The translations under genes and the position numbers were made by a program. From positions 1 to 42,657 of the IMG/VR virus record IMGVR_UViG_2541047850_000006: 42,657 nucleotides of DNA. One strand, written 5' to 3'. Position 1 is the first letter of the stretch; every line of letters begins with the position of its first letter. Below, piece by piece: positions 1,723 through 38,962 of this stretch. The stretch comes from a virus (Duplodnaviria > Heunggongvirae > Uroviricota > Caudoviricetes). Under the pieces are notes generated by a model that saw only the letters and a program-made list of their open reading frames with translations, did not search any database and was not told the origin of the DNA.

Positions 1723-1777
1723 AAATAATCTTGTGCTTACTTATCATTATTTGCGTAAAAAACGACACACAGAGAGC

Positions 1778-2560
1778 TTACCAACTTCCCCAGCTAATCA
1801 TCTTGCGCTGATCGCTTTCTAAGCGATAGGGGGCAAGAAGCTCTGTGACATGATTGGTGGCGTATGATTTAGCCTCTTGCTCTATCATCGGTAATTCGTT
1901 AGCAATCCTGACCATCTTCCCAGCAAATTCCGCCATTACTCCATCACATGCCTTCCCCGCATCAACAACGATATGCACCAGATCCAACTGGCTTTTGCAC
2001 ATGTCCCAAAGAGTCGAATATTCGCTCTCTCTGATTAGGTTTACAGCATCATTAGCCCCTTTATTAATCAAAACCTCCAACAGATTTGTCGGGGTGACGA
2101 AATCGGCTTTCAGAGACAATGTTGGTTCAGCTTTTACCGACTGCAAGTAATCTTCAAAGTTTTGCTTGTCTTCCAGCAAAGCTAAACTGCGCATAGCCCG
2201 AATAGATTCTCGAATGACGGCTTCAATATGTTCGTCACCTGGATGACAGATAATGGTATCTGTATAGATGACTCTGCCATCAAACCACGCCCCAACCTGC
2301 ACTTTTAGAGTACGTAAGTTTTCTTTGGGTACAAAAACAACTAATGCAGAACGTCGTGCATGTGCAGGTTCGCCCCATACGCACAACTTAACCTTCAGAT
2401 AAGGTAGCCCCGGTAGCGGGATCTCGACCAAACGAGTGGCGATATGATCCATTGCTGTTTTTACGGCTTTTTCAATGATGTCTAGCCGATTGCTCTCGCT
2501 GATTTCTAAACCAGTTTTATCAATGATGTCGCAGGCTAATTTCTGAATTTCGTCTTTCAT
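1778..2560 (-). CDS. Hypothetical protein (260 aa), replication-module associated
   Basis: Track ORF with ATG start and AGGAG SD about 6 nt upstream; the 20-bp palindromic motif lies ~40 bp upstream (2602-2621). Confidence 0.55.
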   Translation of the reverse strand: MKDEIQKLACDIIDKTGLEISESNRLDIIEKAVKTAMDHIATRLVEIPLPGLPYLKVKLCVWGEPAHARRSALVVFVPKENLRTLKVQVGAWFDGRVIYTDTIICHPGDEHIEAVIRESIRAMRSLALLEDKQNFEDYLQSVKAEPTLSLKADFVTPTNLLEVLINKGANDAVNLIRESEYSTLWDMCKSQLDLVHIVVDAGKACDGVMAEFAGKMVRIANELPMIEQEAKSYATNHVTELLAPYRLESDQRKMISWGSW

Positions 2561-2635
2561 ACCAACTCCTAGCTAACAGATGAAAGTATTTTTACAGAAA
2601 GATAAGTAATCATATACTTATTTTAAAGGTGATTG

Positions 2636-3889
2636 TTATGATAGAGCCTTAATGCCCAAAACCTTGCTTTGTAACTCCAACTGCTTGGTATACGGTTTTG
2701 CCCGATAATAGGCTTTGATAATTTGTTCTGGCGTTGCACCGCCCGGGTCGAGTCCTTCCTCACCCAAACACGCAACTTTGACATTAAGACCGATACTGGT
2801 CAGTCGCCTAGCTGCGGGCATAGTGTTGCGTATAGCTTGCTTTTCACTATCCCACATCATGATCACATTACGTAACCCACGCGCCTTGAGCGTCAGGAAC
2901 GCGCCTAACTGATCTTCTGCATCCTGAGTGGTGTTGCCAGATAGATGCATCCCGAACGTTCCTATTGGTTCCACGTAATCACGTAATGTTTCTTCATCAA
3001 AAATAGCTCGTTTAACCCCCATAACATCGAACGCCCCCTCACAGACAACTACAGTCTGTTTGCCGACCGCATTATGGCCGTTGTAGAGAAACTTACCTGA
3101 AGCTGGAAGTTGCATAGGAAAGAGGTAGCGGCGTTCTGCTGTACCGGTAATGTCTCGTCCCTGAAATGTCTTCATTACCCCATCCAGATCGTAAATCGGT
3201 ATCAGTATTCGCATATCGAATATCTGCCCTTTAACCTGATCTGTATACGGATCTACATAAGCGTGCTTGCCTTCGACGCAGTATCGTAGGTCAAAATACT
3301 TTGCCATTTCAGGTGATATGTTTCGTTCAACCAGATAGTCTGGAAGACGGCCATCTATAGGAAGCTCGTAATGACGAGGGAGTGCAACTGGCCCCTCTAA
3401 CTCGACTGTGCTTGCAAGCACTAGCTCTTCTTTCTTTGGTGCCCACCCCTGGGAAAGAAGGGCGTTCTGCACATATTCCTCGAACTGTCGTCGTGATTTA
3501 CCGCTGTAGTGCTTGAGGAAGACCAGCTTATTGAACTGAATCTCTTCGGGATGATCACCAGCGAAGCATTTGCCGACGCCACTGGTCAGATTGAAATATA
3601 CCTTCCAGTTGGAGCTGCCGCATACCGGACACTCCTTGATATTCACTTCACGACCGCGAGCACTCACACCTCCACGTCGATAAACGATACCTTCAGTATC
3701 CAACCATTGTTCAAAATCTAATTCGGCAATTAGCTCTTTCAGCTCGCTCACGATAATTCCACTTTTAACAGGCAATATTATGACCAACATAAATGTTGAT
3801 ATAACATAAAGGCTCATGTGTTTTTCTTTTGTGGTTTGGCAAAAGAAAAGTTGTTTCACCAATGAATCAAGCGTGGAGGTGTTCTCCAC
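2636..3889 (-). CDS. DNA primase (zinc-binding domain + TOPRIM), T7 gp4 primase-domain-like; N-terminus probably over-extended (likely ATG near 3817)
   Basis: CPVCGSS...C..GDH zinc-ribbon-like motif; VVVCEGAFDVMG and MMWDSEKQA TOPRIM-like acidic motifs; the track start is GTG inside a hairpin at 3870-3892. Confidence 0.75.
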   Translation of the reverse strand: MENTSTLDSLVKQLFFCQTTKEKHMSLYVISTFMLVIILPVKSGIIVSELKELIAELDFEQWLDTEGIVYRRGGVSARGREVNIKECPVCGSSNWKVYFNLTSGVGKCFAGDHPEEIQFNKLVFLKHYSGKSRRQFEEYVQNALLSQGWAPKKEELVLASTVELEGPVALPRHYELPIDGRLPDYLVERNISPEMAKYFDLRYCVEGKHAYVDPYTDQVKGQIFDMRILIPIYDLDGVMKTFQGRDITGTAERRYLFPMQLPASGKFLYNGHNAVGKQTVVVCEGAFDVMGVKRAIFDEETLRDYVEPIGTFGMHLSGNTTQDAEDQLGAFLTLKARGLRNVIMMWDSEKQAIRNTMPAARRLTSIGLNVKVACLGEEGLDPGGATPEQIIKAYYRAKPYTKQLELQSKVLGIKALS

Positions 3890-5282: not shown

Positions 5283-6032
5283 TTAATTATATAGGGGATC
5301 AATAAACCACCGTGCTTCTTCCAGTTCTTCTGGAAAGTGGGCGGAAATAAGGCGCTCTGGAACGATTTCCATTAGCCAGATAGCGGAGAAAATTGCGCGT
5401 ATGCGCTTGCTGCGAGGGATGGTGCGCAAACGCTCCAGAATCCACTCAAAATAGCTTTCCTGAATCGGGTTGAACTGCATGTCTCCCATATGCTTAAAGC
5501 TAACCAGAGAGTCATCCAGACGGGTTGTTGCGCGTCTGGCTAATTTCTCTTCAAATATCTCAATCAGTTCTGGCTGCCATAAATGCTGCGGACGCGGCAG
5601 CTTGTCCCACAGACGTCGTGCAGCTGCGGAAAGCACGGTGGAGATAAAGTAGTCGTATGAGCAACAATAGCGGTCAGCAAACTGGCGTGCTTTCCATAAC
5701 GACGTTTTATTGGCAGTCGACAACTCCTGATAAGGCAGGCGTTTTAACCCGGTGGTGAACGGAGCTGTTTCAAAGTGTTCGCGACCGTGCGTCAGCATGA
5801 TATTTGAGTACTGACGTTTGTATGCCTCCGTAAAAAGACAGGTGGCCATGAGAGGATGCATGTCGCAGTAATCAAACCACTTCGTCTCGAAGAGTTCAGC
5901 CTCGTCTTTACAGCGCGACAAACCAATGTTTTCAGCGACCCACTTGTCCATAACAGCGGTATTCCACTCTGTCATGAAGTCGTACTGGTCGTTGTCGATG
6001 GTATCGAAAAAGATTTGGCTCATGTGGCTCAC
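5283..6032 (-). CDS. Hypothetical protein (about 246 aa from ATG at ~6023)
   Basis: Track ORF (GTG start); an in-frame ATG 9 nt downstream has an AGGTGA SD; a palindromic motif overlaps the start region (6036-6055). Confidence 0.5.
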   Translation of the reverse strand: MSHMSQIFFDTIDNDQYDFMTEWNTAVMDKWVAENIGLSRCKDEAELFETKWFDYCDMHPLMATCLFTEAYKRQYSNIMLTHGREHFETAPFTTGLKRLPYQELSTANKTSLWKARQFADRYCCSYDYFISTVLSAAARRLWDKLPRPQHLWQPELIEIFEEKLARRATTRLDDSLVSFKHMGDMQFNPIQESYFEWILERLRTIPRSKRIRAIFSAIWLMEIVPERLISAHFPEELEEARWFIDPLYN

Positions 6033-6137
6033 CTGGTAGGTAGTTACTTACTTATTACAATGAGCGGATGATAGCGACTGGTGGCAGTTTTTGGAAGTGG
6101 AAACGAAAGGGAGTTGTTCTGGTTGTGTCTTTTAAAA

Positions 6138-6196
6138 GACCTGCTTCTGTATATATTTAATAAGTTACTTATTATTTATATATACGGAAGCAGGCA
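6138..6196. repeat. Long near-perfect palindrome A (about 17-bp arms CCTGCTTCTGTATATAT / ATATATACGGAAGCAGG around an AT-rich core AATAAGTTACTTATT); copy 1 of 2
   Basis: Read directly; a second copy in inverted orientation at 35661-35716. Confidence 0.75.
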
Positions 6197-6309
6197 TACA
6201 TAACTTGTCGTCTTAGACGCCCAGAAGCTCTACACTTTGAGCCTGTTAAATTGATTAAAAACTTATGTGTAAAATAGAACGCATTAGTCAGTAGCTAAGA
6301 GATGCAATA

Positions 6310-10072: not shown

Positions 10073-10073
10073 A

Positions 10074-10793
10074 TTAGGCCATCCCTTTCTGGTGTTTTCT
10101 TACCTGCGACCAGGCAATGAATCCTGCCACAACAATAGTGGCAATACCGAAGATGATGCGTACTGTATCCCCACTAGAGATATGACCTTGTGCTTTATCC
10201 ATAGCAGCGGAAACCTGCGGCATAACATCGGCCAGCTGCGCCAGACCAATACCTGCTGTAACAGTTGCGCCTGCTGTTTCTTTAGTTACAGGAACAGCCT
10301 TCACGGTTTTCACCGGCTTAACGACTCCAGCTCGACGCAGACCTTCCTCAATAACTTCTGCCGCATACCAGGTGTTCAGCGTTTTTAGCGGACCTCGCCC
10401 ATTCTCATGGCGAATGATTGCCTCAACCAAAGGTCGAAGGATGTCGTAATCATGCAGATCGATGATCATGTCTGCGGTTACACCAACGGCTTTAGACACC
10501 TCATTAATGTAGGCGTCAGTATTGTTTTCATTCGGCGGTGCCCAACGTTCAATAACTTCACGAATGGTATCGATACTTGAGCCGTCTTTTGCGCGACGTT
10601 TGTCGTGGTAGGTAATTAGAGTCACCGCCAGCGCACGAATCCCCCAAACAGGGTCTTTAAACGTGCAAAAGCGCGGTTCGTCTGGATTCGCAACCAGACC
10701 TTGCCACGGTGATCCTTTATCCAGATTACCGGGGTTATTATTACGAATGCCTCTCGGAGTCTTCATCCTTGATCTCCTGTTATTGCAGTCCAT
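10074..10793 (-). CDS. Putative cell-wall hydrolase / endolysin candidate with C-terminal hydrophobic helix (likely start at ATG near 10766)
   Basis: Position between membrane proteins and spanin candidates; AGGAG SD precedes the internal ATG (MKTPRGIRNNNPGN...); C-terminal IIFGIATIVVAGFIAW segment; the enzymatic family is not identified. Confidence 0.4.
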   Translation of the reverse strand: MDCNNRRSRMKTPRGIRNNNPGNLDKGSPWQGLVANPDEPRFCTFKDPVWGIRALAVTLITYHDKRRAKDGSSIDTIREVIERWAPPNENNTDAYINEVSKAVGVTADMIIDLHDYDILRPLVEAIIRHENGRGPLKTLNTWYAAEVIEEGLRRAGVVKPVKTVKAVPVTKETAGATVTAGIGLAQLADVMPQVSAAMDKAQGHISSGDTVRIIFGIATIVVAGFIAWSQVRKHQKGMA

Positions 10794-11124
10794 TTTTTAC
10801 GCCATACGCGGCTAACCCCAAAAGCAGTGCGGTAATAATGAACGACGTTATTTTAGATACAATGTCGCCAAAGAACCCACTGGAGATGGAATCTAACCGG
10901 TTAAGGAGTTTGTCCAGATTAGAGTGTTGAATACTATGTTGCGCAGGGGTCATGTCACCAAAGTAGGTTTTAAGCTGGTCGTTGACCTCTTGGCCAATTT
11001 CTTCTCGTAGCTCTTTACCTAATTTGCCAACAACTTCCCTAGCAACGATCGCGGCAATGCGCTCAACTTGCTCTGTTGTCACGCTCGCCATCTCGTTCGA
11101 CATATTTCCTCCATGAAAAGCCAA
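10780..11124 (-). CDS. C-terminally anchored membrane protein, lysis-associated (holin/antiholin candidate); likely start at ATG near 11103
   Basis: GGAGGAAAT SD before the internal ATG; a single C-terminal TM (FIITALLLGLAAYGV) after a soluble N-domain. Confidence 0.4.
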   Translation of the reverse strand: MAFHGGNMSNEMASVTTEQVERIAAIVAREVVGKLGKELREEIGQEVNDQLKTYFGDMTPAQHSIQHSNLDKLLNRLDSISSGFFGDIVSKITSFIITALLLGLAAYGVKNGLQ

Positions 11125-11164: not shown

Positions 11165-11184
11165 ATAGGTATGCACTTACCTAT
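11165..11184. promoter_or_regulatory. 20-bp palindromic motif ATAGGTA-TGCACT-TACCTAT upstream of the lysis genes
   Basis: Perfect 7-bp inverted half-sites with a 6-bp spacer; the same architecture recurs at 2602, 6036, 14260, 27556, 30182 and 38943. Confidence 0.55.
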
Positions 11185-11856: not shown

Positions 11857-14216
11857 TCCACAACCTCCCCAAGCTGCGCATCTGTTAGCTCTTTATGCCA
11901 GAGACGAAAATTCCTCACATGCCCAAATAAATGGCGTAATCCTGCTGTAGTTTGTCCACCAATGCGAATGGTTGCTGTACTCCGGATATATTCCCATTTG
12001 GTTTTAGTTTCGCTGCTTAACTTACCGTTACTGACTACACATGTGGACCGTTCGGACTTTACCCGCATACCAATAAGCATTTTTTTCAGCCCGGCATTTT
12101 CATTTATTCGTCGGTCTGAACCACCTATATCGCAATACGGAAAACCGTCGTACCCACCTGATGAACCAAACCCCATTACGATCCCCGCTCCGGTTTGATG
12201 ACCGCCGGTATCAAAAACACGCGGCGCTACATTTGGCGTTTTATACCAGTTCTTATGTACCTCACAAAAAACCGTAAAAGGAAGATTATAAAGATTATTC
12301 TTAATCGGAACTGTAACCATATCGCTTGCCCGCGTCGCCGCCGTCGTTCCTGATATAATAAAAGATGATACACACGAACCATCCTCAACCTGAGGGGTAG
12401 CCAGATAAATATAGTCACCAGATTCAACGACACCACCTTTTTTTGGTGCGTATTGTATTGCAGAGGTTATGTAAGTTTCTTTACTTGCTTGAATCGTTGC
12501 CTCTGCAAAAATCCAGCCCGTAACTTCATCTTTGTTAACTCGTGCGGTGAGCCTGTCGGCAGCTACACCGGTGATTTCAACCAATAAAGACCGCGTATTA
12601 ACAATGGCATATCCAAGATTAGATGAAGCGCTGCCATTGAAGGCTTCAAACCTGATCTTTAACAGGAGTTCCAAATCCGTTTTAAATCTGCACGATGTCG
12701 TCACGCACTTATTATCGCCTGATACATCGACAGCCCCCGAGGTTGAAACTACTGCCATATTAAGGGTTGTACTTTGCCCAATTAATGATTCATTACAAAC
12801 AAACTTTCCATAAGTAAAACCAAAACCATCAGTTCCAACCTCAGCGACATTCATATTTGCAGATTTACCCCAAGAAGCTGGAGTTGCTGAATTTAACATG
12901 TAGTTGGTTCGCTGACCTTCAATCAATAAACCTTCTTTTTCAAATCGTGGCTCATTAATTTCCGCCGTTTTCAGTTCGCCAGATTTGTTGATATATGTTG
13001 CCGTTGATGCGCGACTGAAATTAACCTGTTTATCACTGGCAACCTGAACCACATTATCACCAATCTTCACTTTTTTATAACCCGGAGAATAGCCCGTAAT
13101 CATATCCAGCGAATCATTAAAGGGTATCCACACATCCGGCAGCGGCTGTAAAACATATCTGTACGGCTCTGCTGTCTGGTTTGCGTATTCTCTGGCAGCA
13201 TCTTCACTTGCTTTTGCTGCCGTCTGGCTTGCTGCCGATGCTTTCGCCGAGTTCGCCGCCGCTGTTTCGCTCACCTTTGCGTTGGCTTCACTGGTTTTTG
13301 CTGCTTTTTGACTGTTAGCTGATGCAGTGGCAGAAGCAGCCGCCGCGCTTGCAGAACTGGCTGCGGCACTCTCGCTTTGGGCCGCTGCATCCTGACTGCT
13401 TTTCGCCGCAGTTTCACTGGCTTTGGCATTCGTTTCGCTGGTCTTCGCTGCCGTCTGGCTGGACTTTGCGTTAGTTTCACTCGTCTTCGCAGCTTTCTGG
13501 CTGTTAGCCGCGGCAGTTGCTGATCCGGCAGCTGAAGTCGCAGAACCAGCTGCGGCACTCTCGCTTTCGGCTGCCGCCGCCTGGCTGTTTTTTGCTGCGG
13601 TAGCGGAGTTGGCGGCAGCACTCTGACTCGATTTTGCAGCTACCTCGCTATTTTTCGCATTAGTTTCGCTGGTCTTTGAAGCTGTCTCACTCGCTTTTGA
13701 GTTAGTTTCTGATTTTTTGGCCGCTGTTGCGCTCGCTGCCGCCTCTTTAGCTTTTTGTGCAGCGGTGTTAATTATGGGAGTATTTTCTTTATACCATTCT
13801 AGGTTCTCATTGTGCTCATTAACGATCTGCGTAAGGGATTTTACGGTTAATTCCGTGCCATCTTCACGCTCAATTGTTATTTTATCCACAGCAGTCAGCC
13901 AACTACGCATCATTTTTGAATCGGCTGACATGCGAGACATAAGCGCAGTAAAACGAGCACTAAATTGGGTCAAATCACCTTCATAGGTCGTAATTATTCT
14001 GCACGGAACATTTGTTTGGGTGCTGCCACCGTAGGCTTCAACAAGAGTTAACGAAGTGTCACTCTCGATTGATTTTATTTCATATAACTTATTATCGGGG
14101 CCAATCAATATCATACCTGGAAGGACGCCGTTCGTCGTCACTCCCCAGGCTGTGCCTGTTCCCACTACAGTTTTATTTCCTTTAGTGAGATTTATTGTAC
14201 CTTCCCTGTACCACAT
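11853..14216 (-). CDS. Side tail fiber protein (lambdoid Stf-like) with Ala/Ser/Thr-rich KSETNAK-type tandem repeats
   Basis: Repeat block ...AAKKSETNSKASETASKTSETNAKNSE...SQKAAKTSETNAKSSQTAAKTSETNAKASETAAKSSQ... matches my recollection of lambdoid Stf repeats; ATG with SD; located after J. Confidence 0.75.
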   Translation of the reverse strand: MWYREGTINLTKGNKTVVGTGTAWGVTTNGVLPGMILIGPDNKLYEIKSIESDTSLTLVEAYGGSTQTNVPCRIITTYEGDLTQFSARFTALMSRMSADSKMMRSWLTAVDKITIEREDGTELTVKSLTQIVNEHNENLEWYKENTPIINTAAQKAKEAAASATAAKKSETNSKASETASKTSETNAKNSEVAAKSSQSAAANSATAAKNSQAAAAESESAAAGSATSAAGSATAAANSQKAAKTSETNAKSSQTAAKTSETNAKASETAAKSSQDAAAQSESAAASSASAAAASATASANSQKAAKTSEANAKVSETAAANSAKASAASQTAAKASEDAAREYANQTAEPYRYVLQPLPDVWIPFNDSLDMITGYSPGYKKVKIGDNVVQVASDKQVNFSRASTATYINKSGELKTAEINEPRFEKEGLLIEGQRTNYMLNSATPASWGKSANMNVAEVGTDGFGFTYGKFVCNESLIGQSTTLNMAVVSTSGAVDVSGDNKCVTTSCRFKTDLELLLKIRFEAFNGSASSNLGYAIVNTRSLLVEITGVAADRLTARVNKDEVTGWIFAEATIQASKETYITSAIQYAPKKGGVVESGDYIYLATPQVEDGSCVSSFIISGTTAATRASDMVTVPIKNNLYNLPFTVFCEVHKNWYKTPNVAPRVFDTGGHQTGAGIVMGFGSSGGYDGFPYCDIGGSDRRINENAGLKKMLIGMRVKSERSTCVVSNGKLSSETKTKWEYIRSTATIRIGGQTTAGLRHLFGHVRNFRLWHKELTDAQLGEVVE

Positions 14217-14309
14217 TTATCCTTTGCTCCTAGATATGGTGGGCGTTCTATGCTCACCATTAAGTTAGTACCTACCTATTTTTACAGAAATGATTATTTT
14301 TTTCCACAA

Positions 14310-27555: not shown

Positions 27556-27575
27556 TTAAGTATATACTTACCTAT
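27556..27575. promoter_or_regulatory. 20-bp palindromic motif TTAAGTA-TATACT-TACCTAT upstream of the major tail gene
   Basis: Same half-site architecture as 11165-11184. Confidence 0.5.
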
Positions 27576-30140: not shown

Positions 30141-30177
30141 AAAACCTACAAAAAGGGTGGGCGTATAGCCCACCCTT
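30141..30177 (-). terminator. Strong rho-independent terminator after the major capsid gene (10-bp stem AAGGGTGGGC/GCCCACCCTT, then TTTTTGTAGGTTTT on the minus strand)
   Basis: Read directly. Confidence 0.8.
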
Positions 30178-30181
30178 AAGC

Positions 30182-30201
30182 ATAGGTAATTACATACCTA
30201 T
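30182..30201. promoter_or_regulatory. 20-bp palindromic motif ATAGGTA-ATTACA-TACCTAT between the capsid stop and its terminator
   Basis: Perfect inverted half-sites; same family as 11165-11184. Confidence 0.5.
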
Positions 30202-30209
30202 TGTTTTAG

Positions 30210-31130
30210 TTAAATTTTTACATTGTTCAGTGCAGCGATAGCCTTATCGTGCTTATTCGCCAGAGAGCAGTACCATTTCACACGAGTACGTACTGCATCT
30301 TTATTCTGTACCGTGCCAATGTTCTCCACAACGATACCAGCATTGTCACCGCCATACAGACCGGTAAGACCATTTTCTTCTGACAAATGCAGACAATAAA
30401 TGTTAGCAGTACCTTCCTGGCCTTCCGTTTTCTGCTCTGAACCTTCAGTAACTTTAACCCCATTTTTAGGAATGAAGTCGTTAACAATAAATGGAATACC
30501 ATTATGGCACAGCATAGGACGACCGAAGTTCTCCATCATGATTTCAGACGGGCCTACGTTTACTGTACGCAGCAGCGCACGGTAAGCACGCAGGTGCTCT
30601 GAACGCATCATGATGCAGTCAGCGCCCAAATCTTTCACCGCATCGACCAGCTCGTCGAACATAGAGAAAGTCATAGATGCACCAGCAATGTCGATCTTCT
30701 GATCTTTGTGCATCAGACGCGGAATACCATCAAACGCTTTGGTATTAGTTTCAGAATTACCCAAGATCAGATTTCGACGGAATGCACGAGCCAGACCTTT
30801 CACTTTCTGGCGAACCTGAACAGCCAACTGATTGTTAGTATCGGACATAGTTGTTGCCAAGAATTTATCAACGTCAACGTCACCAGCCAGAATACGCAGT
30901 TTTGCAACATGTTCGCTGAATGTTGCTGCGCCTTCCGCAATAGTATCGTTTACATCAATAAAGGTCGCTTCACTAAGCGTTGCTTCGCGATTATAAAGAT
31001 ATGCCTTCGAGTTAATCTTCATAAAAGGCAGAATCGCAAACAGGTCATCGCGATCGATGATAGTTTCGATCACACCCTGTTCAAGTTCATTATTGGATAG
31101 CTTTTCAGCTTCTTCACGCAGTAATGGCAT
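30210..31130 (-). CDS. Major capsid protein candidate (306 aa)
   Basis: Position after portal and scaffold; followed by the strongest terminator in the window (typical of highly expressed capsid genes); sequence family not verified. Confidence 0.6.
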   Translation of the reverse strand: MPLLREEAEKLSNNELEQGVIETIIDRDDLFAILPFMKINSKAYLYNREATLSEATFIDVNDTIAEGAATFSEHVAKLRILAGDVDVDKFLATTMSDTNNQLAVQVRQKVKGLARAFRRNLILGNSETNTKAFDGIPRLMHKDQKIDIAGASMTFSMFDELVDAVKDLGADCIMMRSEHLRAYRALLRTVNVGPSEIMMENFGRPMLCHNGIPFIVNDFIPKNGVKVTEGSEQKTEGQEGTANIYCLHLSEENGLTGLYGGDNAGIVVENIGTVQNKDAVRTRVKWYCSLANKHDKAIAALNNVKI

Positions 31131-31155: not shown

Positions 31156-32043
31156 TTACTTAAGTCCAATTTTCCCAAGACCAGAGGTCAACTTATCCAT
31201 CGTCGACTTAGACTTCTGTTGGACTACCTTATGGGTTGGTTTGCTATTAGAACCAGCACCCTGTTTGGCTTCGCTGCGCATGACTGCGTCAGCCTCTGGA
31301 TCTGCCCGCACAATGCGTTCAATCGCAGATTCAAATGACAACGTGTTTCCTTCACCGTCAACCAGAACAGCTCGATCTTTGTGGCCTGCCGGTTTGTCAT
31401 AACCCACTACGCTACCGTCATCACCGACTTCAAAATGAGAACCGTAGATCACGCGAGCTTTCGCGGGAGTCATTAGAACTTTGTCACGAAGGAAGGCAGA
31501 ATTACTAAATGACGCGCCAACGGTCATCTCAACTAATTGAGATTTCAGTGATGCGTTTTCACTTTCCAGTGCTGCATAACGTTCGTCACGCTGTGCCAGC
31601 TCTGCCTGGTGTGCTTCGATCATCTGTTTTTTAACAGCATCGAACTCACCACGACGCTCCAGTTCAGCTTGCTCCGCCTCACGACGTGTGTTTTCTGCGG
31701 CCTGTTCAGCCTCTAAAAGCTGGCGAGCACGCGCCGGGTCGATATCACCGTACTGAGCAAGCTGATCGGCCAATGTGCGCTCTTTCTCTTTGCGCTTCAT
31801 GTTCTCTTTCAGCAGTTCAGCACCAGCTTTCTTGGTTTTGCGAAGTTCGGCCAGTAACTCTTCATGAGTCATGCCAGCGTATTCGCCATCACCCTTCGGC
31901 TGCTCTTTTTGTTCACCCTGCTTGTCAGGATCTTGTGTACTCTGCTCATTATCAGCAGCTACACCGCCAGCGCCCCCACGCTCATGCGCTTCAGCAACAT
32001 TCATCAGACCACGACGGGCCATAAGCATTTGCCACAAATTCAT
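31156..32043 (-). CDS. Scaffolding protein candidate (coiled-coil rich)
   Basis: Long charged helical region ...RQLLEAEQAAENTRREAEQAELERR...; between portal and capsid genes; AAGGGAA SD. Confidence 0.6.
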   Translation of the reverse strand: MNLWQMLMARRGLMNVAEAHERGGAGGVAADNEQSTQDPDKQGEQKEQPKGDGEYAGMTHEELLAELRKTKKAGAELLKENMKRKEKERTLADQLAQYGDIDPARARQLLEAEQAAENTRREAEQAELERRGEFDAVKKQMIEAHQAELAQRDERYAALESENASLKSQLVEMTVGASFSNSAFLRDKVLMTPAKARVIYGSHFEVGDDGSVVGYDKPAGHKDRAVLVDGEGNTLSFESAIERIVRADPEADAVMRSEAKQGAGSNSKPTHKVVQQKSKSTMDKLTSGLGKIGLK

Positions 32044-32106
32044 AAAAGTTCCCTTTATTACTTATCACTCGTTCTCTTGAGTAGATGAGTCCCCATTCCC
32101 TCGGGG

Positions 32107-33663
32107 TTAATTTTGTCCGCTTTCTTGGACAGCACTGCGATCATAGGTAAGTACAGACTTATTTTCAAGAGCATTAAGATCATTTTTTGGCGGAAATTTC
32201 AAGAGATCTTTATCAAATTCCTTTTTCATCGCTTCAGTGATATTAGGGAAAATCTTCTCAATCAGCATTTCCATCTGCTGACGACGTACAGAGTCCGGTG
32301 CCTGAAGTAACGATAGTTTCTCCGCAACAGAAAATTCATCAGTAAGCCCGCGAATATCAAAACTTTCTGGATATGCTATTAGAGAGTGATCTTCGTCCAG
32401 ATCTACCCCCATCCATTTAGCAACCAGTTGCATGATTTGGCGTTCAGCCCTTTCAAGACGATCTGCTTTTGTGACAAGCAAGCTATTTACACGCTGGAAG
32501 TCATACATTTTTGCAGCACCAGATGAATTATCTATTCCCTGTGCGTTGTCCTGCTTCGTTCGCTCGCCAGCTACACCAACTGAATGGTAGATTTCGTTAA
32601 TCACCGTCTTAATCGTAGTGATGATCATCTGAGCTTGTTTAGGGTCTGGTGATAAATAAAACGGCTGGTTTCCACCTTCAGAATCGTAGGTAAAGACACG
32701 TTTTGTCCCCATTTCAAGAACTTTAGTGTGATTATCATCACCAGGTAAAAGTGACTGCACCGGTATGGCCAACTGGCTAAATGTCTGATCCTGAATAATG
32801 GCATCAAGGTTTGACAGATAGTTTGCAACCGCACGATCAAGATAAGCGATATCATCGATCAACGATGGGCTGAAATACGGTGATTCACTTTCTCCAATAC
32901 AATCAACAGGAAACACAGGAACTACGCCCAGATTATGCTCGTCGCTATCCTCTAAAATAACTTTTGCCTGACGACGAGCTGCTCCACTAGCGCCCTTCTT
33001 CACTTCCTCACGGAACAGATACCACTCGTTTTGTGTCCAAAGACGATAACGTTGGTATTCCTGACCTGTAGAAGTAAAAGGATCTGCGTCATCACGAGCG
33101 ACTTCCACAATTAACGCCCATAACATATTCCCGTCGTCGTCCCATGCCACATCCAGCATTTGCTGCGGTGAAATCCAGTAGGCGTAGGCACGAGCATCTT
33201 TCTTTTTCTCGTCAGCGACTGATTCAACATCACCACTCATCGTGCTATCGACAACAACCCAGATACGACCGTATATAGACGATTGCAAATCAATCGCGGC
33301 CATAAATGAATCAATAGAGGCATTCTGGCGAGTCGCTCGTTTCCAGAAATTGCGGATCTGCTCTGGCGATTCTTCAATATTTCGATGAATATCTTCTTTA
33401 AAAAGATACTTGTTAATGAGATTTACCACTTCACGGGTGTGGTTGAATCGATAAGCACGCTCAACTCGCTCCTTAAATTCCTGGTCGCCCTCTTTAAAGT
33501 ACCTAAATATATTTTCGCTAAACCAACCACGCCCGCCAGCATAGGTGCTAGCGAGAAAGTCCCAATGTTCTTTTTTCTTTTCGTATTCCGGGTGGCGTCG
33601 CGCCACCAGATCCTTAATTTGTTTGTCGTTCAATTCCATTTGAATACCCTTAAATAACCACAC
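32107..33663 (-). CDS. Portal protein candidate (518 aa)
   Basis: Size and position directly downstream of the large terminase. Confidence 0.7.
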   Translation of the reverse strand: MWLFKGIQMELNDKQIKDLVARRHPEYEKKKEHWDFLASTYAGGRGWFSENIFRYFKEGDQEFKERVERAYRFNHTREVVNLINKYLFKEDIHRNIEESPEQIRNFWKRATRQNASIDSFMAAIDLQSSIYGRIWVVVDSTMSGDVESVADEKKKDARAYAYWISPQQMLDVAWDDDGNMLWALIVEVARDDADPFTSTGQEYQRYRLWTQNEWYLFREEVKKGASGAARRQAKVILEDSDEHNLGVVPVFPVDCIGESESPYFSPSLIDDIAYLDRAVANYLSNLDAIIQDQTFSQLAIPVQSLLPGDDNHTKVLEMGTKRVFTYDSEGGNQPFYLSPDPKQAQMIITTIKTVINEIYHSVGVAGERTKQDNAQGIDNSSGAAKMYDFQRVNSLLVTKADRLERAERQIMQLVAKWMGVDLDEDHSLIAYPESFDIRGLTDEFSVAEKLSLLQAPDSVRRQQMEMLIEKIFPNITEAMKKEFDKDLLKFPPKNDLNALENKSVLTYDRSAVQESGQN

Positions 33664-33665
33664 AC

Positions 33666-34922
33666 CTATCTCGAACCACCAAGAATAACACGGTTTTTTA
33701 CTGGATACCTACGATGTACTGGGTAGCCCAATGCGTCTGCACTATGCTCAATGCCACCTGTCTTATCCATATCTCGTGTTCCAGGCTTGTAGATGACCTT
33801 TTCCAGCGAATCAATCAAATGCTTGCATTTCGGATCGATATACAGCCTGATATCCCCAGATGCGGTCATCAGCATTCGGTTAACTGCATTAACACGATCC
33901 GCAATTGGCGGGTGTTTTTTTGAATAATCGACACGCAAGAATCCCTTCTCTTTGAATATGTCGACGTCAGACTCACCGCGAGCATGTTGACGATAAGCAC
34001 CAGCCGGAGCAGGAAATACCGTTATCTGTGATTTCCATCGCCAGAAACGTCTCTCCAGCTCATCACACACTTCTGCCGTGTTAGAGGAAAAGAGCACCAA
34101 TTCATCAATTGCCCATAGCTCACCGTTTGGCTGAGGTTGCAAAATTACGGAAGACATCGGGTCAATGTTGAAGTCCTGCCCTACCCATATAGGCAACCGA
34201 GGGTTGAACTGAAGCGGTTTTACATGCACGTTACGATCGAACGGGTAGTAAACGCGCCCGGACATGTTCTCAAAGCTGGCTAGGTACTCCTGAGCGAACG
34301 ATTTCGGGTCCATATCGTTCTTAGCAGCTTCAATTTCCGCCGTAGGTACGAACGGAGAATCGGCAGTTACAAACTGCCAGCTTTTCCACTGTCCCTTTCT
34401 TTGCAGCTCTACGTTCTGGCCTATAGTCCACAGTTTGTGAAATTCCGAGAAGCCTTTTGGCGTACCAATGATCAGTGCACCGCCACGTGTCGATGAAAGA
34501 GTAGGTCGTAACACCTTGTACCAGGTGTCAGCCTTCATATCCTGAAATTCATCAAGAACTACAAAATGCAACGCTACGCCGCGCAGAGTGTCAGGCTTAT
34601 CAGCACCTTTGAGGGCGATCTCCGAACCGTTCTTCAACACGATTGTCATCGTGGTGTCGTTCTTTTTTCTAACCCACTTACGAGGCAGAACTTCCTGTAG
34701 ATCGTCCCACAAAATCTGGCGAGCCATCTGGTAAGTAGGAGCGACATACCAGACCCTTTGCTTTTTTTCCTTTGCCGCCGCACGAATAATAGTGGAGATC
34801 GACAACCGGGATTTTCCCCAGCGTCGACCAGCACAAACAACTTTAAATCGATGGGGAGACTGGAAGACTTTCATCTGTCCAGAATGCAGTTGCACAAGAC
34901 TGAGCGAGGACGGGATTGCCAT
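33666..34922 (-). CDS. Terminase large subunit
   Basis: Walker A-like VVCAGRRWGKS, Walker B-like VVLDEFQDM, C-terminal nuclease-size domain; overlaps the small-subunit stop. Confidence 0.8.
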   Translation of the reverse strand: MAIPSSLSLVQLHSGQMKVFQSPHRFKVVCAGRRWGKSRLSISTIIRAAAKEKKQRVWYVAPTYQMARQILWDDLQEVLPRKWVRKKNDTTMTIVLKNGSEIALKGADKPDTLRGVALHFVVLDEFQDMKADTWYKVLRPTLSSTRGGALIIGTPKGFSEFHKLWTIGQNVELQRKGQWKSWQFVTADSPFVPTAEIEAAKNDMDPKSFAQEYLASFENMSGRVYYPFDRNVHVKPLQFNPRLPIWVGQDFNIDPMSSVILQPQPNGELWAIDELVLFSSNTAEVCDELERRFWRWKSQITVFPAPAGAYRQHARGESDVDIFKEKGFLRVDYSKKHPPIADRVNAVNRMLMTASGDIRLYIDPKCKHLIDSLEKVIYKPGTRDMDKTGGIEHSADALGYPVHRRYPVKNRVILGGSR

Positions 34923-35640: not shown

Positions 35641-35738
35641 GTTTAATTAGGTCTGGGCATGTCTTATTAAGCCTGCTTCTGTATATATATTTAATAAGTT
35701 ATTTATTATTTATATACAGAAGCAGGTCTTTAAAATAA
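35641..35738. repeat. Long palindrome B (core 35661-35716 CCTGCTTCTGTATATA...TATATACAGAAGCAGG with extended imperfect symmetry GTCTGGG...CCCAGAC); copy 2 of 2, inverted relative to copy A
   Basis: Read directly; lies between the wHTH gene stop and the terS start region. Confidence 0.75.
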
Positions 35739-35751: not shown

Positions 35752-36018
35752 TTACATCACCAGTAACTTCGCTTTGGCTCGACCTAAAGTGGTTAACCCA
35801 AGAGTTCGGCGGTGATAGCGATTGTCACTGCGTTGGCGCGTATGCCCTTTCTCCACCAGCCCCTTTTTTATCAGAGCGCGAATTGAGAACTGGATACTTT
35901 GCTTTGTTGTCTTGTACGGCAAAACTTCAAGCAATTCGTCCAGATCAAGTAGATGACCTCGCTCATAACCGAGATTGAGCGTTTTGATGATGTCCTTTTG
36001 TTTATTGGTTAATGTCAT
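35752..36018 (-). CDS. Small winged-helix DNA-binding protein candidate (88 aa)
   Basis: Helix-turn-helix plus basic wing pattern ...TKQSIQFSIRALIKKGLVEKGHTRQRSDNRYHRR...; last gene of the coupled operon. Confidence 0.45.
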   Translation of the reverse strand: MTLTNKQKDIIKTLNLGYERGHLLDLDELLEVLPYKTTKQSIQFSIRALIKKGLVEKGHTRQRSDNRYHRRTLGLTTLGRAKAKLLVM

Positions 36019-36918: not shown

Positions 36919-37580
36919 AAATGGACCTCATCATGACTACCATTGTGATATTCCACCTTCACGCGTTCTTTGTAGTGCTTGATGATCTGCATATCCGGGC
37001 GCAGCGCGTTCTTCAGGTCTTCGTGAGTCGTCGCCACCATTACCGTCGCACCAACCTTTCGAGCGGCACGCTGGAGGTTAGATGCCACAACCTGAGCGGT
37101 TACACGGTCTAGAACAGCACCGAACTCGTCAGCAGCCCACACTTTAGCGCCTGACTCAATCAGTTTGGCAATCTTGAGACGATATTTCTGGCCGTCTGAC
37201 ATTTCAGAAGGCTTGCGAACAAACAGATATGCATCGTTCAGACCAGCCATAGATAACAACCCAAGCGCATCGCTGGTCGTTTTGCCCAACTGATCGATGA
37301 CGTTAACCTCATTATCGAAGGTAAAATCATCGATGGAGGCTACAGACAGCCCTTCATCCTTCATCTGTCGTTGCAACTCGCGCAGCACAACGGATTTGCC
37401 GGAACCGGATTGGCCGGTGATGTACACCACATCGCCCTGCTTCACTTCCAGCTCCAGATTGTCGTAAAGCGTCCACTCTTTTTCGTCCAGGCCAAGCCCG
37501 AACGACTCAGCGATTTCCAACGTGCGCGTGGTTTTATTTACGTGTGTCTGAAACGATACGTTGATGTTGTATTTGCTCAT
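36915..37580 (-). CDS. Small stand-alone ABC-type ATPase (221 aa)
   Basis: Walker A GQSGSGKS, ABC signature LSDGQKYRL, Walker B VWAADEF, H-loop-like VMVATTHE; 4-nt overlaps with both neighbours. Confidence 0.7.
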   Translation of the reverse strand: MSKYNINVSFQTHVNKTTRTLEIAESFGLGLDEKEWTLYDNLELEVKQGDVVYITGQSGSGKSVVLRELQRQMKDEGLSVASIDDFTFDNEVNVIDQLGKTTSDALGLLSMAGLNDAYLFVRKPSEMSDGQKYRLKIAKLIESGAKVWAADEFGAVLDRVTAQVVASNLQRAARKVGATVMVATTHEDLKNALRPDMQIIKHYKERVKVEYHNGSHDEVHL

Positions 37581-38278
37581 GCAGCCATCTCCCCGGAAGA
37601 GATCTTCTCCGCATATGCCACAAATGCGTCTACCCCGCTTTCTCCCGTCATTTCTTCCATATGGGCAAGCAAATCACCAACAACAATGGCAGAGCCAGCA
37701 GGGAGAGTTTTAAAGCCCAATACGTCGACAACACGTACTTCTTCCGCTGCAACTTCACGACTGATCTCGGTGTGTTCATCCTTCTGTCGTTTAGTTTCTT
37801 CGCCAAGATCGATAACTAGCGAGTCGGTGTCCATTTCTTCTGTCATACTGCCAACGAGAACATTCAACTCACGCTCTTCAAAGCCGAAAACCTCGATATC
37901 GTCCAGAACAAGCGACTCAAGCTCTTTCTGTAGCTTAATTGCATCGTAATCAATGCTGGCAAGTCGGTTATCTTCAAGGCGCTTCGCACGAACCTCGTCA
38001 TCACTGAGATCATCGCGAACAATAACCGGTACACGCTCAAGTCCAGCAAAAATTGCAGCCTCACGGCGGCCGTGGCCAGTAATAATTACGTCGTTCTTAT
38101 CGACCGTAATTGGCTGGTCAAATCCGCGCTTTTTAATGGCTGCGGCCAGATCTCTGATCTGCTGTTCATCATGCTTTTTGGCATTCATCTCATAGGGAAT
38201 AAGATCTGCCGGGTCGCGATATACGATTTCAAACTTTTTGGTCATTACATACGCTCCTTGTAGTAGTCGACCAGCCAC
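37577..38278 (-). CDS. ParB/Srx-fold domain protein 2 (likely start at ATG near 38245)
   Basis: ParB N-terminal-domain-like ...VIITGHGRREAAIFAGLERVPV...; the ATG overlaps the stop of the upstream ParB-like gene. Confidence 0.65.
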   Translation of the reverse strand: MAGRLLQGAYVMTKKFEIVYRDPADLIPYEMNAKKHDEQQIRDLAAAIKKRGFDQPITVDKNDVIITGHGRREAAIFAGLERVPVIVRDDLSDDEVRAKRLEDNRLASIDYDAIKLQKELESLVLDDIEVFGFEERELNVLVGSMTEEMDTDSLVIDLGEETKRQKDEHTEISREVAAEEVRVVDVLGFKTLPAGSAIVVGDLLAHMEEMTGESGVDAFVAYAEKISSGEMAA

Positions 38279-38943
38279 ACCAGAGCCTCACCAGCGTTTT
38301 CCATTTCATTGCCAGTATTAATTGCCTGGTCTTTGATGATGTTTTTTATGGTTTCTGCAACGCGATCTGACGCATCGAAGGTTACTTTGAAGCGCATGGT
38401 CTGATGTTCCGCACCGACACGTTCGGTTTTCTCTCGTTTGTCGGTATCGACAGGCTCATCACTACCACGAGACAACGCCTCCAGTGCTTCAAGGTCAATT
38501 GCCGCCTCTTTTGCTAAAACCATCGAGATTTCGTCGTCATACGGGGCGATTTCAGACAGTTGATAGTCAAGTTCTGACTGAATTTCTTCAATGAAGCGTT
38601 GCAATGCGATTTGGTCGTCTTCACCGTATCGCTCGTTGTCCACCAGTGACATCTGTTTTGCCACGACATCGCTAATTTTGCCCACAGAAAGCACAGGAAC
38701 CGTTGAAATTCCTTGCTCAATAGCAGCACGCCAGCGATGTTCGCCGCCGAGGATTTCAAAAAATCCATCTTCAAGCTCACGAGCCAAAATTGGCTTAAAA
38801 AAGCCCAATTTTTCGATAGAACCTTTCAGTTTTTCGAAATTCTGCGCACCAACCGAATTGGTGTTCCAGGTATTCGGGCGAAGGTTGGCAACATCAACCT
38901 GCAAAATCGTGATTTTTACGTCCATTTTATTGCTACAATCCAC
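38245..38943 (-). CDS. ParB/Srx-fold domain protein 1 (likely start at ATG near 38925)
   Basis: ParB N-terminal-domain-like ...FEILGGEHRWRAAIEQGISTVPV...; first gene of the operon; palindromic motif immediately upstream. Confidence 0.65.
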   Translation of the reverse strand: MDCSNKMDVKITILQVDVANLRPNTWNTNSVGAQNFEKLKGSIEKLGFFKPILARELEDGFFEILGGEHRWRAAIEQGISTVPVLSVGKISDVVAKQMSLVDNERYGEDDQIALQRFIEEIQSELDYQLSEIAPYDDEISMVLAKEAAIDLEALEALSRGSDEPVDTDKREKTERVGAEHQTMRFKVTFDASDRVAETIKNIIKDQAINTGNEMENAGEALVWLVDYYKERM

Positions 38944-38962
38944 TAAGTAATCACTTACTTAT
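38943..38962. promoter_or_regulatory. 20-bp palindromic motif CTAAGTA-ATCACT-TACTTAT in the divergent region between the ParB-like operon and the SF2 helicase
   Basis: Same half-site architecture as 11165-11184. Confidence 0.5.

Follow-up and report, generated by a model that had tools for sequence, protein, structure and literature searches.

The 42,657-nucleotide stretch of viral DNA analysed here (the window) is ~100% identical to Escherichia phage PhiR41_1, an SSU5-like phage-plasmid, and a first-pass annotation had described a single palindrome scattered between its genes, which raises the question of whether this motif is real and what might read it. The motif is real. The annotated pattern gives 7 exact strand-hits in the window (0.00 expected; shuffles never reach 7) and 23 hits with up to two mismatches (1.27 expected; no shuffle reaches 23), and all seven copies listed as full were recovered in place. 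PWM scanning yielded nine strong copies scoring 22–28 and two degenerate ones, compared with a top score of 18.9 and a mean maximum of 11.1 across 100 whole-genome shuffles. The complete 108-kb PhiR41_1 genome carries 18 strong copies, 17 of them intergenic in a genome that is 88% coding (binomial P = 2.8e-15), and the whole-genome scan found no strong copy in its 20–42 kb accessory region. The core is the 20-bp ATARGTAAGT|ACTTACYTAT, and its weaker flanks extend the symmetry to a full 26-bp consensus, aWR-ATARGTAAGT|ACTTACYTAT-YWt; SSU5-like phage-plasmids have ~20 intergenic occurrences each of this 20–26 bp palindrome.

Copies occupy the short gaps between genes in all lytic modules, from nucleotide metabolism and replication through lysis, tail and head to packaging. 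An exact match at 2602–2621 (PWM 23.8) separates the primase stop from the minus-strand gene that follows (1778–2560), 41 nt from the start of the latter; it reads TTTAAA-ATAAGTATATGATTACT-TATCTT in gene sense and has orthologous copies in Cyrano and SSU5. The copy at 6036–6055 (PWM 24.0; orthologues at SSU5 33600 and Klebsiella 74983) occupies a divergent intergenic region, 13 nt upstream of the first gene (5283–6022) of the helicase-primase operon. Since a Shine-Dalgarno-like GGTGAG comes directly after the motif, this copy lies at or after the transcription start, and it has no in-register promoter. The window's best copy, an exact match at 11165–11184 (PWM 27.8), is upstream of a holin-like gene (10780–11124), and its orthologues precede the holin gene in SSU5 (27474), Klebsiella (69442) and a distant relative (L118).

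Among the tail genes, one copy (14260–14279; PWM 22.3; orthologues at SSU5 21937 and Cyrano 22448) separates the genes for host-specificity tail protein J and the side tail fibre. Another, between tail genes M and L (21058–21077), had been taken for a weak or half-site copy and is in fact strong (PWM 22.4). Here a promoter-like TGGATA-17-TATTAT sits in a second register, its −35 overlapping the motif's left end, and the minus-strand promoter scan match (21080–21052) is followed by a terminator-like hairpin (21048–21026). A further exact match at 27556–27575 (PWM 24.1) lies 4 nt past the stop of a tail-completion gene, with the major tail (Ig-domain) gene 49 nt further on; it has a promoter-like match at 27588–27559 on the minus strand and an orthologue at 14289 in the GC-rich relative L101.

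In the head region, an exact match at 30182–30201 (PWM 27.7) lies 8 nt past the major capsid stop, and a minus-strand terminator-like GC hairpin with a T run (30159–30175) follows within a few nt downstream, such that a start ~7 nt after the −10 would fall in the 5′ arm of the hairpin. The same site-then-hairpin layout follows the capsid gene in the distant lineages L041 and L101, where the post-capsid copies are set as TTGAAA-17-TACAAT (L041 3293) and TGGACA-17-TATAGT (L101 11001). The claim that all copies are intergenic holds for 17 of the 18 in PhiR41_1; the exception is a strong copy that had been overlooked (32143–32162; PWM 25.8), within the 3′-terminal part of the portal gene. Here the motif makes up the spacer of a minus-strand sigma-70 promoter close to consensus (32140–32168; TTGAAA-17 bp-TATGAT) that points at the next gene (31156–32043). 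This is the segment's best promoter-like match (10/12), and it has conserved counterparts at SSU5 3544, Klebsiella 42093 and Cyrano 3527. The last strong copy (38943–38962; PWM 23.9) lies in the divergent region between a ParB-like gene (38245–38925, minus strand) and a helicase gene (39008–40567, plus strand). Read on the plus strand, its last bases are TATCAT, with the helicase start 45 nt further on, and therefore it may serve the ParB-like gene, the helicase gene or both; the same divergent junction carries the motif in GC-rich relatives (L101 856, L129 6662, L041 13063).

Both degenerate copies score 12.2. That at 1725–1744, 15 nt upstream of the gene at 1240–1709, is weak as annotated and falls under the shuffle maximum, with one good half-site (ATAAGTAAGC in gene sense) and one degenerate half; Cyrano (35607) and SSU5 (39087) keep the good half at the orthologous position. 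The decayed copy at 33650–33669, at the large-terminase/portal junction, has strong orthologues in SSU5 (2031, score 26.8) and Klebsiella (40580, 31.2), and its orthologues in GC-rich relatives lie within full promoters (e.g., L129 13321, TTGCAA-17-TACAAT). A proposed copy at 32046–32065 is none (score −14.9), and the cores noted within two long palindromes have a shortened 13-bp centre with a different half-site spacing, making them a separate element.

The motif is deeply conserved. Salmonella and Klebsiella relatives have copies at the orthologous junctions between genes (~21 in SSU5, ~20 in Klebsiella pJN2-26 and ~22 in Cyrano), and distant relatives with 40–64% GC and proteins only 30–58% identical still carry 2–9 copies per fragment. 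Such invariance across lineages would be unusual for the operator of an immunity repressor, because immunity repressors normally diversify.

We built a logo from 121 non-redundant copies, and it is fully symmetric, centre and flanks included, so the reported common orientation of the copies has no meaning; the one-sided AAGT look of the motif is a sampling accident of the window copies. The two halves vary independently: the counts at pair 4:17 (AT 38, AC 34, GT 23, GC 21) are exactly those expected under independence, and double changes at the central pairs are fewer than expected (5 vs. 14.6). This bears on an RNA-level hairpin, acting as a processing site, stabiliser, terminator or translational operator, which corresponds to the UTR element once suggested. 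Perfect copies can fold a 7-bp RNA hairpin (−5 to −8 kcal/mol, z about −3), copies lie between cistrons and often beside ribosome-binding sites or terminators, and a FljA-like repressor, of a family reported to act on fliC mRNA, is encoded nearby. However, covariation is absent at every pair (75.8% paired vs. 75.5% in shuffles; covariation score 0.155 vs. 0.149), A-C mismatches are as frequent as G-U, and three of six window copies, all bona fide (14260, 6036 and 32143), fold no better than shuffles (z = +0.56 for 14260). The window has no Rfam match, and neither the strand-symmetric logo nor a divergent-region copy common to two strands suits an RNA element. The RNA-level reading is thus already largely refuted, and we give it the lowest probability of the readings considered. 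Independent half-sites without covariation argue instead for a duplex-DNA site bound by a protein dimer, and the dimeric regulator with dispersed operators put forward in the first-pass annotation is supported by these properties together with the promoter register.

That register was measured on 94 non-redundant copies from GC-rich relatives. TTG occurs at −6 to −4 on the gene-sense side of 23 copies and on the antisense side of 1 (P = 7e-7), and complete sigma-70 promoters with 17 bp between the hexamers number 20 in sense and 2 in antisense (P = 5e-5). In a quarter of these copies, as at 32143 in the window, the motif exactly fills the spacer of a gene-directed TTGnnn-motif-TAYnAT. Where a promoter is recognisable, the −35 hexamer abuts the motif's left end, the motif spans −29 to −10, and the −10 hexamer opens with the final three bases of the motif (TAT or TAC). 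The spacer between −35 and −10 is a position typical of repressors. About three-quarters of copies lack a recognisable −35, and the −10-like TAnnnT may be just a part of the palindrome, since it is equally common on both strands (46 sense vs. 44 antisense). Several copies end 1–17 nt short of a start codon, leaving the ribosome-binding site between motif and gene (6036; PhiR41 7947 and 103132), and these cannot be promoters in that register.

We infer from this arrangement that a protein binds the motif and acts negatively: with moderate confidence, we regard it as the operator of a phage-encoded dimeric repressor that would silence the virus in the plasmid state, the likeliest repressor being an XRE-family protein. 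A less probable account is an activator-dependent phage promoter element, in which a conserved phage activator such as a MarR-like 88-aa protein binds the palindrome and replaces the −35 contact; a single factor would then switch on all lytic genes. The lack of a −35 at most copies, which nevertheless end in a −10-like TAT(C/T)AT, would fit this account, as would a palindrome centre near −20, close to the P1 late promoter arrangement, and the invariance of the motif, which suits a core factor. Against it, one in four copies from GC-rich relatives combines a −35 and a −10 that are close to consensus and optimally spaced at 17 bp, and therefore needs no activator; a protein lying over the entire spacer and half-way into the −10 would normally block RNA polymerase; and copies abutting start codons cannot be promoters. 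The 88-aa protein (35752–36018, minus strand), encoded by the last gene of the operon starting at copy 38943, is indeed the winged-helix protein it was annotated to be: it has no Pfam family, but its AlphaFold model (pLDDT 81.6) matches MepR/MarR in Foldseek (TM 0.70–0.76), and syntenic orthologues occur across the whole family in every lineage sampled. Its recognition helix, however, differs among lineages that share the same motif, and as an in-window candidate binder it is neither proven nor favoured. The other binder suggested, a 92-aa protein described as ribbon-helix-helix-like, gives a poor structure model in which that fold is not obvious.

As the first-pass annotation allowed, the best candidate for the repressor lies outside the window: a 128-aa XRE-family helix-turn-helix protein encoded beside the integrase. 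The XRE gene has a conserved promoter, TTTACA-16-TAATAT followed by C-RGTAAGYACTTACC in ~78 of 80 loci (the spacer varies), which places the motif's inner 14 bp at the transcription start predicted from the −10, a repressing position that also speaks against an activator. In PhiR41_1 this is the sole such core outside the canonical copies; it scores just ~10 with the full matrix because the outer triplets differ. The protein's helix-turn-helix segment is at least 90% conserved. Its Cyrano counterpart, CYRAN_45, is listed as a putative (master) repressor, its expression in the LF82 lysogen reaches 10x background, and Cyrano is induced 39-fold by ciprofloxacin (PMC9928086). SSU5 lacks the XRE gene, the integrase and the small divergent genes, yet retains all motif sites, so that, if the XRE protein is the binder, it is not needed as an activator. 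XRE homologues were found in enterobacterial elements only, and none was found in ~1 Mb of motif-bearing fragments from GC-rich relatives, which sample only the surroundings of motif copies.

The element also encodes two ParB_N proteins, which opens an improbable third route: the copies could be loading or binding sites of a ParB-like CTPase, in KorB-like global silencing or as a dispersed centromere (cf. RK2 and prophage N15). The first of these proteins (38245–38925, minus strand; Pfam ParB_N 3.4e-13; PHROG 'ParB-like partition protein'), whose gene and operon follow the conserved copy at 38943, aligns through its DNA-binding region to residues 23–171 of Thermus Spo0J (1vz0; E = 2.7e-9) and is 35–48% identical in GC-rich relatives. 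The second (37577–38278) follows it, and both are conserved in all motif-bearing lineages. Yet nothing connects these proteins with the motif sequence, which at 20–26 bp exceeds the 13–16 bp of ParB, Noc and KorB sites, and a centromere role would leave the fixed −35/−10 register unexplained. The element has its own, separate partition operon, encoding ParA and a small protein. KorB does silence promoters from about a dozen palindromic RK2 operators (PMC11790492). The Cyrano genes with reported expression in lysogens do not include the ParB-like ones (PMC9928086). Very unlikely, finally, is a host transcription factor site or the promoter of a phage-encoded RNA polymerase. An identical motif in hosts of very different GC could be explained by a very widely conserved host factor, but our scan of public genomes returned only isolated, scattered occurrences, as chance could produce. 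The length of the motif superficially resembles single-subunit polymerase promoters, but a symmetric palindrome does not, and neither the annotated PhiR41_1 products nor a non-exhaustive Pfam scan of six large genes outside the window (usher, CobT, gp32-like, SbcC-like and similar) yielded an RNA polymerase; the phage-specific promoter suggested earlier is unsupported in this sense. To our knowledge, the motif matches no E. coli factor consensus.

Palindromes placed like this one are known from other phage promoters. The P22 Arc operator (Pant) lies between, or overlaps, −35 and −10, but controls one promoter pair through a tetramer of ribbon-helix-helix dimers. P1 late promoters combine a −10 with a palindrome centred near −22 that is bound by Lpa, with no −35; these are activator sites. 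The present motif, in contrast, recurs at many places with one sequence, and a good −35 accompanies a sizeable subset of its copies. Among dispersed systems, the closest analogues are the P1 C1 operators, mycobacteriophage stoperators and RK2 KorB. The C1 repressor of P1 likewise has operators dispersed across the genome. Both elements are plasmid-prophages in which one repressor, its own gene under such a site, controls (here, is proposed to control) many operators that overlap promoters of lytic functions over a ~100-kb genome, and the operator is conserved among relatives. The P1 operators, however, are asymmetric, 17 bp long and monomer-bound, in contrast to the 20–26 bp palindrome suited to a dimer; C1 is not XRE-type and there is no sequence similarity; and P1 late structural genes are under Lpa rather than directly under C1, whereas here one site is shared by replication genes and by the head, tail and lysis junctions.

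In Cluster A mycobacteriophages (L5 gp71 and relatives), the short gaps between genes likewise contain tens of repressor sites genome-wide, structural genes included, which are thought to silence read-through transcription in lysogens (PMC9283540, PMC5712189, PMC6550527), and in both families a lytic relative without the repressor gene keeps the sites (D29 there, SSU5 here). Stoperators are asymmetric, 13–14 bp long, monomer-bound and oriented with transcription, unlike the symmetric motif, a subset of which lies inside canonical promoters and not just in transcribed spacers. KorB OB sites of RK2 are also palindromic operators, a dozen or more per mobile element, in global negative control of backbone genes, and ParB-family proteins are encoded in both; OB is 13 bp, acts at variable promoter distance and involves a sliding clamp (PMC11790492), whereas the present motif is longer and keeps a fixed place in the spacer wherever a promoter can be seen.

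If the motif is a repressor operator, one subunit would contact each half on double-stranded DNA, and the dimer would exclude host sigma-70 RNA polymerase because the site spans −29 to −10 and enters the −10 hexamer; copies past the transcription start or without a recognisable −35 may act as roadblocks or auxiliary sites. The XRE protein would limit its own synthesis through the weaker copy at its predicted transcription start. In the plasmid-prophage state, repressor on ~20 sites simultaneously would keep the whole lytic programme silent, and its loss or inactivation would release all modules together.

The window belongs to the SSU5/pHCM2-type phage-plasmid family, whose members occur commonly in E. 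coli, Salmonella and Klebsiella and can bear resistance genes. Bases 20000-42657 are ~100% identical to Escherichia phage PhiR41_1 (PV340561.1, 108 kb, circular); their identity is 94-98% with other E. coli elements and ~80% with Salmonella phage SSU5 and with relatives from Klebsiella. The window corresponds to the reverse complement of PhiR41_1 from ~38.6 to 81.3 kb and contains the helicase/ParB region, the packaging, head, tail and lysis genes, a ParA partition operon and a helicase-primase operon, with almost all genes on the minus strand. Since window bases 1-200 have no exact match in PhiR41_1 despite the ~100% identity over 20000-42657, we treat the window as a close relative of that phage and not as the exact record.

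A 20-bp palindrome recurs throughout this genome. The pattern proposed by the first-pass annotation gave seven exact strand-hits in the window against 0.00 expected, and 23 matches against 1.27 expected when up to two mismatches were allowed. With a symmetric weight matrix built from copies across the whole PhiR41_1 genome, 18 copies score at least 20 (here called strong), compared to a mean maximum of 11.1 and a highest score of 18.9 in shuffled sequences, confirming that the motif is real and enriched. Seventeen of the 18 are intergenic in a genome that is 88% coding (P = 2.8e-15), and they are distributed across the nucleotide metabolism, packaging, head, tail, lysis and replication modules, with none in the 20-42 kb accessory block. 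Nine strong copies lie in the window, named here by their first coordinate (2602, 6036, 11165, 14260, 21058, 27556, 30182, 32143 and 38943), along with two degenerate copies (1725 and 33650). The first-pass list had missed the strong copy 32143, which falls within the 3′ end of the portal gene, so that its description of all copies as intergenic holds for 17 of 18 genome-wide but not for this one. It had also ranked 21058 as a weak or half-site copy, although this is among the nine strong ones; 1725 is degenerate as claimed, and 32046 scores -14.9 and is not a copy.

Read in gene sense, the window copies conform to ATARGTARGTnnnTACYTAT and had been described as sharing one orientation. Many copies in SSU5 and in the Klebsiella phage-plasmid pJN2-26 are perfect 20-bp palindromes (ATAGGTAAGTACTTACCTAT). 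Moreover, we gathered 121 non-redundant copies (contexts <85% identical) from public viral contigs, mostly enterobacterial with four divergent loci included, and their logo is symmetric at every position, both in the core and in weaker flanks that bring the element to 26 bp (left flank A-W-R, right flank Y-W-T). The seeming orientation is therefore not a property of the element.

The network extends well beyond close relatives. SSU5, pJN2-26 and the related phage-plasmid Cyrano carry ~21, ~20 and ~22 strong copies, respectively, at gene junctions matching those of the window. Together with PhiR41_1 (18), the count is 18-22 copies per genome across all lytic modules, late genes included. Two pattern scans of viral contigs recovered many fragments of far more distant relatives (40-64% GC), in which the terminase, portal, capsid, tail, helicase and ParB-like proteins share 30-58% identity with their PhiR41_1 counterparts. 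Each fragment has 2-9 copies that preserve the core TAAGTAA-N6-TTACTTA, located in the helicase/ParB divergent region, at the terminase/portal junction, on both sides of the capsid gene, and upstream of the major tail gene, the holin gene and the replication operon. An AT-rich palindrome left unchanged in genomes of 60% GC is strong evidence of function. A scan of public genomes for the palindrome returned scattered single matches only and was uninformative on host factors; among the matches to TAAGTAAGNNCTTACTTA (genome contig loci L130-L249), many single ones fall in Pyrinomonadaceae and Blastocatellia genomes. Matches to the 20-mer ATAGGTAAGTTTATACCTAT (loci L011, L026, L030, L037, L040 and others) were discarded as codon-driven rather than instances of the element, because they lie inside a conserved coding region of an unrelated phage group.

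We evaluated whether the element acts as a structured RNA (hairpin, terminator or processing site) or as duplex DNA. At pair 4:17, the 121 copies contain A-T 38, A-C 34, G-T 23 and G-C 21 times, with A-C mismatches as common as G-U and Watson-Crick pairs at 59 versus 59.0 expected from independent columns. Double changes at the three central pairs are below expectation (5 vs. 14.6 for pair 9:12), a scarcity that fits selection for at least one good half-site. A covariation tool returned 75.8% paired cells vs. 75.5% in shuffled alignments (173 of 500 shuffles as high) and a score of 0.155 vs. 0.149. Perfect copies folded as RNA give weak hairpins only (-5 to -8 kcal/mol), three of six copies folded (14260, 6036 and 32143) do no better than shuffles, and an Rfam search of the window found no match. 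Covariation at the shuffled level, poor folding and the lack of an Rfam family lead us to reject the RNA reading, and in view of the missing compensatory arm changes we take the element to be a duplex-DNA site for a symmetric dimer: it is two-fold symmetric, with halves that are each conserved yet vary independently.

In a subset of copies, the element stands in a fixed relation to promoter elements. Among 94 non-redundant copies from GC-rich relatives, oriented by homologous flanking genes, TTG occupies -6 to -4, the start of a -35 that abuts the motif, on the gene-sense side in 23 and on the antisense side in one (P = 7e-7). A complete sigma-70 promoter (at least four of six matches per hexamer, a 17-bp spacer and the -10 at motif positions 18-23) is present in gene sense in 20 of these 94 vs. 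two in antisense (P = 5e-5), and in nine vs. two copies of the 121-copy set; examples are TTGCAA-17-TACAAT, TTGAAA-17-TATGAT and TGGACA-17-TATAGT. In such copies the motif extends through the spacer into the -10, of which it covers the first half (approximately -29 to -10). About three quarters of copies are without a visible -35, and the -10-like TAnnnT shows no strand preference (46 sense vs. 44 antisense), indicating that it is part of the palindrome. The clearest window promoter is that of 32143 (TTGAAA-17-TATGAT, 10/12), the top promoter-like match in its 20-kb segment; 21058, 27556 and 2602 resemble sigma-70 promoters weakly, and 6036 lacks such a -35/-10 pair. Copy 6036 directly precedes a ribosome-binding site and start codon, which places it at or after the transcription start. 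A second register occurs at 21058, where the left flank and the motif start form a -35 (TTGATA or TGGATA) and the -10 directly follows the motif; read by eye, the ribonucleotide reductase copy shares this register. Sigma-70-like hexamer pairs are depleted in window bases 1-40000 relative to shuffles (15 vs. 32.2 and 17 vs. 24.4), which makes their coincidence with motif copies more telling. A promoter for a phage RNA polymerase was rejected as an explanation on a screen of six large PhiR41_1 genes outside the window, a sample of the gene content, whose products are usher, CobT, DUF4942, gp32-like, SbcC-like and AAA proteins. The promoter register in a subset, together with symmetry, independent halves and intergenic placement, supports the main reading of the first-pass annotation, a dimeric DNA-binding regulator with dispersed operators.

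Two further features accompany late-region copies. An extra element, ATTTAR(G/C)C, lies ~7-14 nt upstream (window 30202-30216 and 21078-21092; 13300-13320 in the distant-relative locus L129), gives both logos a T peak at -13 to -11, and could be an UP-like element or a site for a second factor. After the capsid gene in three distant lineages, a strong GC hairpin and T run come within 1-7 nt downstream of the motif (window 30159-30201, L041 3293 and L101 11001), bearing out the reported copy between the capsid stop and its terminator. The post-capsid copies of the GC-rich loci L041 and L101 have a promoter, and in the window copy only a -10-like TATGCT is recognisable. Transcription initiated at the customary spacing would begin within the 5′ arm of the hairpin, so that upstream transcripts could terminate while new ones escape.

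The proposed sign of regulation is negative, as reasoned from promoter strength and the need of the prophage for silence. Near-consensus hexamers at optimal spacing would let these promoters fire unaided, and the plasmid-prophage state would need the portal, capsid, tail and lysis promoters off. A dimer bound over the spacer and -10 would exclude polymerase and keep them off; the Arc operator of P22 Pant is likewise placed over the spacer and -10. Copies lacking a promoter could serve as roadblocks, like the stoperators of Cluster A mycobacteriophages (PMC9283540).

The binder is probably the integrase-adjacent XRE-family repressor, a candidate reasoned from gene context and sequence. A 126-128-aa XRE-family HTH protein is encoded beside the integrase in PhiR41_1 (87738-88124), Cyrano and pJN2-26, divergent from a 70-aa gene and outside the window, as the first-pass annotation had allowed for the true regulator; this module (PhiR41_1 86640-88584) is present in E. 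coli and Klebsiella elements. One base past the XRE gene promoter, TTTACA-16-TAATAT, and approximately at the predicted transcription start, lies RGTAAGYACTTACC, which corresponds to the inner 14 bp of the motif; this is the sole core of its type in PhiR41_1 outside the canonical copies. Of 80 loci, ~78 retain both the promoter hexamers and the palindrome unchanged, with a variable spacer. Apart from their helix-turn-helix segment (GYKNxNNLSLIKSGKIPLP), which is conserved to at least 90%, the aligned proteins share 52-77% identity with the first, E. coli-type, sequence in the alignment. The Cyrano homologue, CYRAN_45, is listed by its annotation authors as a putative (master) repressor and is expressed at 10x the local background in the LF82 lysogen, and ciprofloxacin induces Cyrano 39-fold (PMC9928086). 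The SSU5 record is without the integrase, XRE and 70-aa genes yet retains all motif copies; if the XRE protein binds the motif, the copies thus need no XRE activator, and SSU5 may, judging by its gene content, be a repressor-less derivative. Homologue searches found the XRE protein solely in enterobacterial elements of ~100-116 kb, and those with the XRE and the 88-aa proteins returned close enterobacterial relatives only, with uninformative names. A profile search found no XRE homologue in the GC-rich fragments, which says little given that these cover motif-copy neighbourhoods only.

We also considered, as an unlikely alternative, that the binder is a conserved core protein (a ParB-like CTPase pair or the MarR-like 88-aa protein) rather than a rapidly evolving immunity repressor. 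Two ParB_N proteins, conserved in the family, are encoded in the window, and the first aligns to Spo0J through the DNA-binding region. Known ParB-family sites (parS, NBS, KorB OB) are palindromes of 13-16 bp, and the motif is longer. Given this conservation and alignment, a KorB-like reading stays viable (PMC11790492). The 88-aa protein, proposed in the first-pass annotation as a winged-helix binder, does model as a MarR-like winged helix (pLDDT 81.6; TM 0.70-0.76 to MepR/MarR) and has syntenic orthologues throughout the family, but its recognition helix varies between lineages sharing the same motif; the genes reported as expressed in the lysogen do not include it. The 92-aa protein, previously called RHH-like, gave a poor structure model unfit for structure search and without ribbon-helix-helix appearance. 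The phage-plasmid also codes for a FljA-like "repressor of phase-1 flagellin" (PF03614, E = 1e-68; PhiR41_1 37192-37710, ~1 kb past the right end of the window), which is not favoured as a binder given that no motif lies near its gene, it has no solved relative, and it is not among the Cyrano genes expressed in the lysogen. Were a core protein the binder, the SSU5-like family would be governed by a plasmid-type global circuit in the style of KorB. One palindrome, frozen across lineages of 40%-64% GC, would gate every lytic promoter and also occupy the centre of the long palindrome by the packaging genes, coupling silencing, partition and perhaps packaging.

Long palindromes related to the motif are a further feature of the family. 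A ~56-bp palindrome, CCTGCTTCYGTATATATAAATAA..TAAGT.ACTTATTA..TATATACRGAAGCAGG, is present in three copies per genome with arms alike within a genome; pattern searches place it at window 6139-6200 and 35671-35732, at PhiR41_1 13434, 45581 and 75114, and at SSU5 33457, 78303 and 103262. Bordered by an A run and a T run, it resembles a bidirectional terminator. The first-pass annotation placed the motif core in the centre of long palindromes A and B; what stands there is the motif minus its middle portion. The linear records of SSU5 and Cyrano are cut within the ~56-bp copy that precedes the small-terminase gene. At six GC-rich loci (L308 3773, L263 2868, L274 3271, L101 5216, L129 11279 and L041 9104), a full motif copy occupies the position 5′ of this gene. 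It is the top score of its locus in two of the six (L129 and L041; ~29.5) and is centred in a long palindrome in the other four (L308, L263, L274 and L101). The outer arms of this palindrome vary between genomes yet stay complementary, a pattern that points to a conserved hairpin or cruciform enclosing one special copy.

Dispersed C1 operators are known from phage P1, and P1-type late promoters, which depend on Lpa, have a -10 without a -35 and an activator-bound palindrome centred near -22. The geometry here is similar (motif centre at approximately -20), but a quarter of the GC-rich copies have a good -35. By analogy, the element may work like the dispersed C1 operators of P1, L5-like stoperators (PMC9283540, PMC6550527) and the KorB operators of RK2 (PMC11790492). 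However, P1 C1 and Cluster A stoperator sites are asymmetric, monomer-bound and oriented with transcription, whereas the motif is a palindrome with no strand asymmetry and therefore falls outside both families. SSU5, which keeps the motif copies without the XRE gene, has a parallel in mycobacteriophage D29, a relative that lacks the repressor yet keeps its stoperators (PMC5712189).

Taken together, the element is a highly significant, deeply conserved palindromic sequence that we interpret, from its sequence context, as an operator in or adjoining the promoters of all SSU5-like lytic modules. A full-text search of the SSU5 literature for operator, palindrome, repressor or promoter found no description of the motif, nor did the literature searched describe how SSU5/pHCM2-like phage-plasmids are silenced in the plasmid state. 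One operator sequence at ~20 promoters and junctions, with a named candidate repressor, opens that question to simple experiments. Furthermore, the motif provides a compact signature for spotting distant members of the family, and the placing of its promoters under one proposed common repressor offers a possible lever for forced induction or curing.
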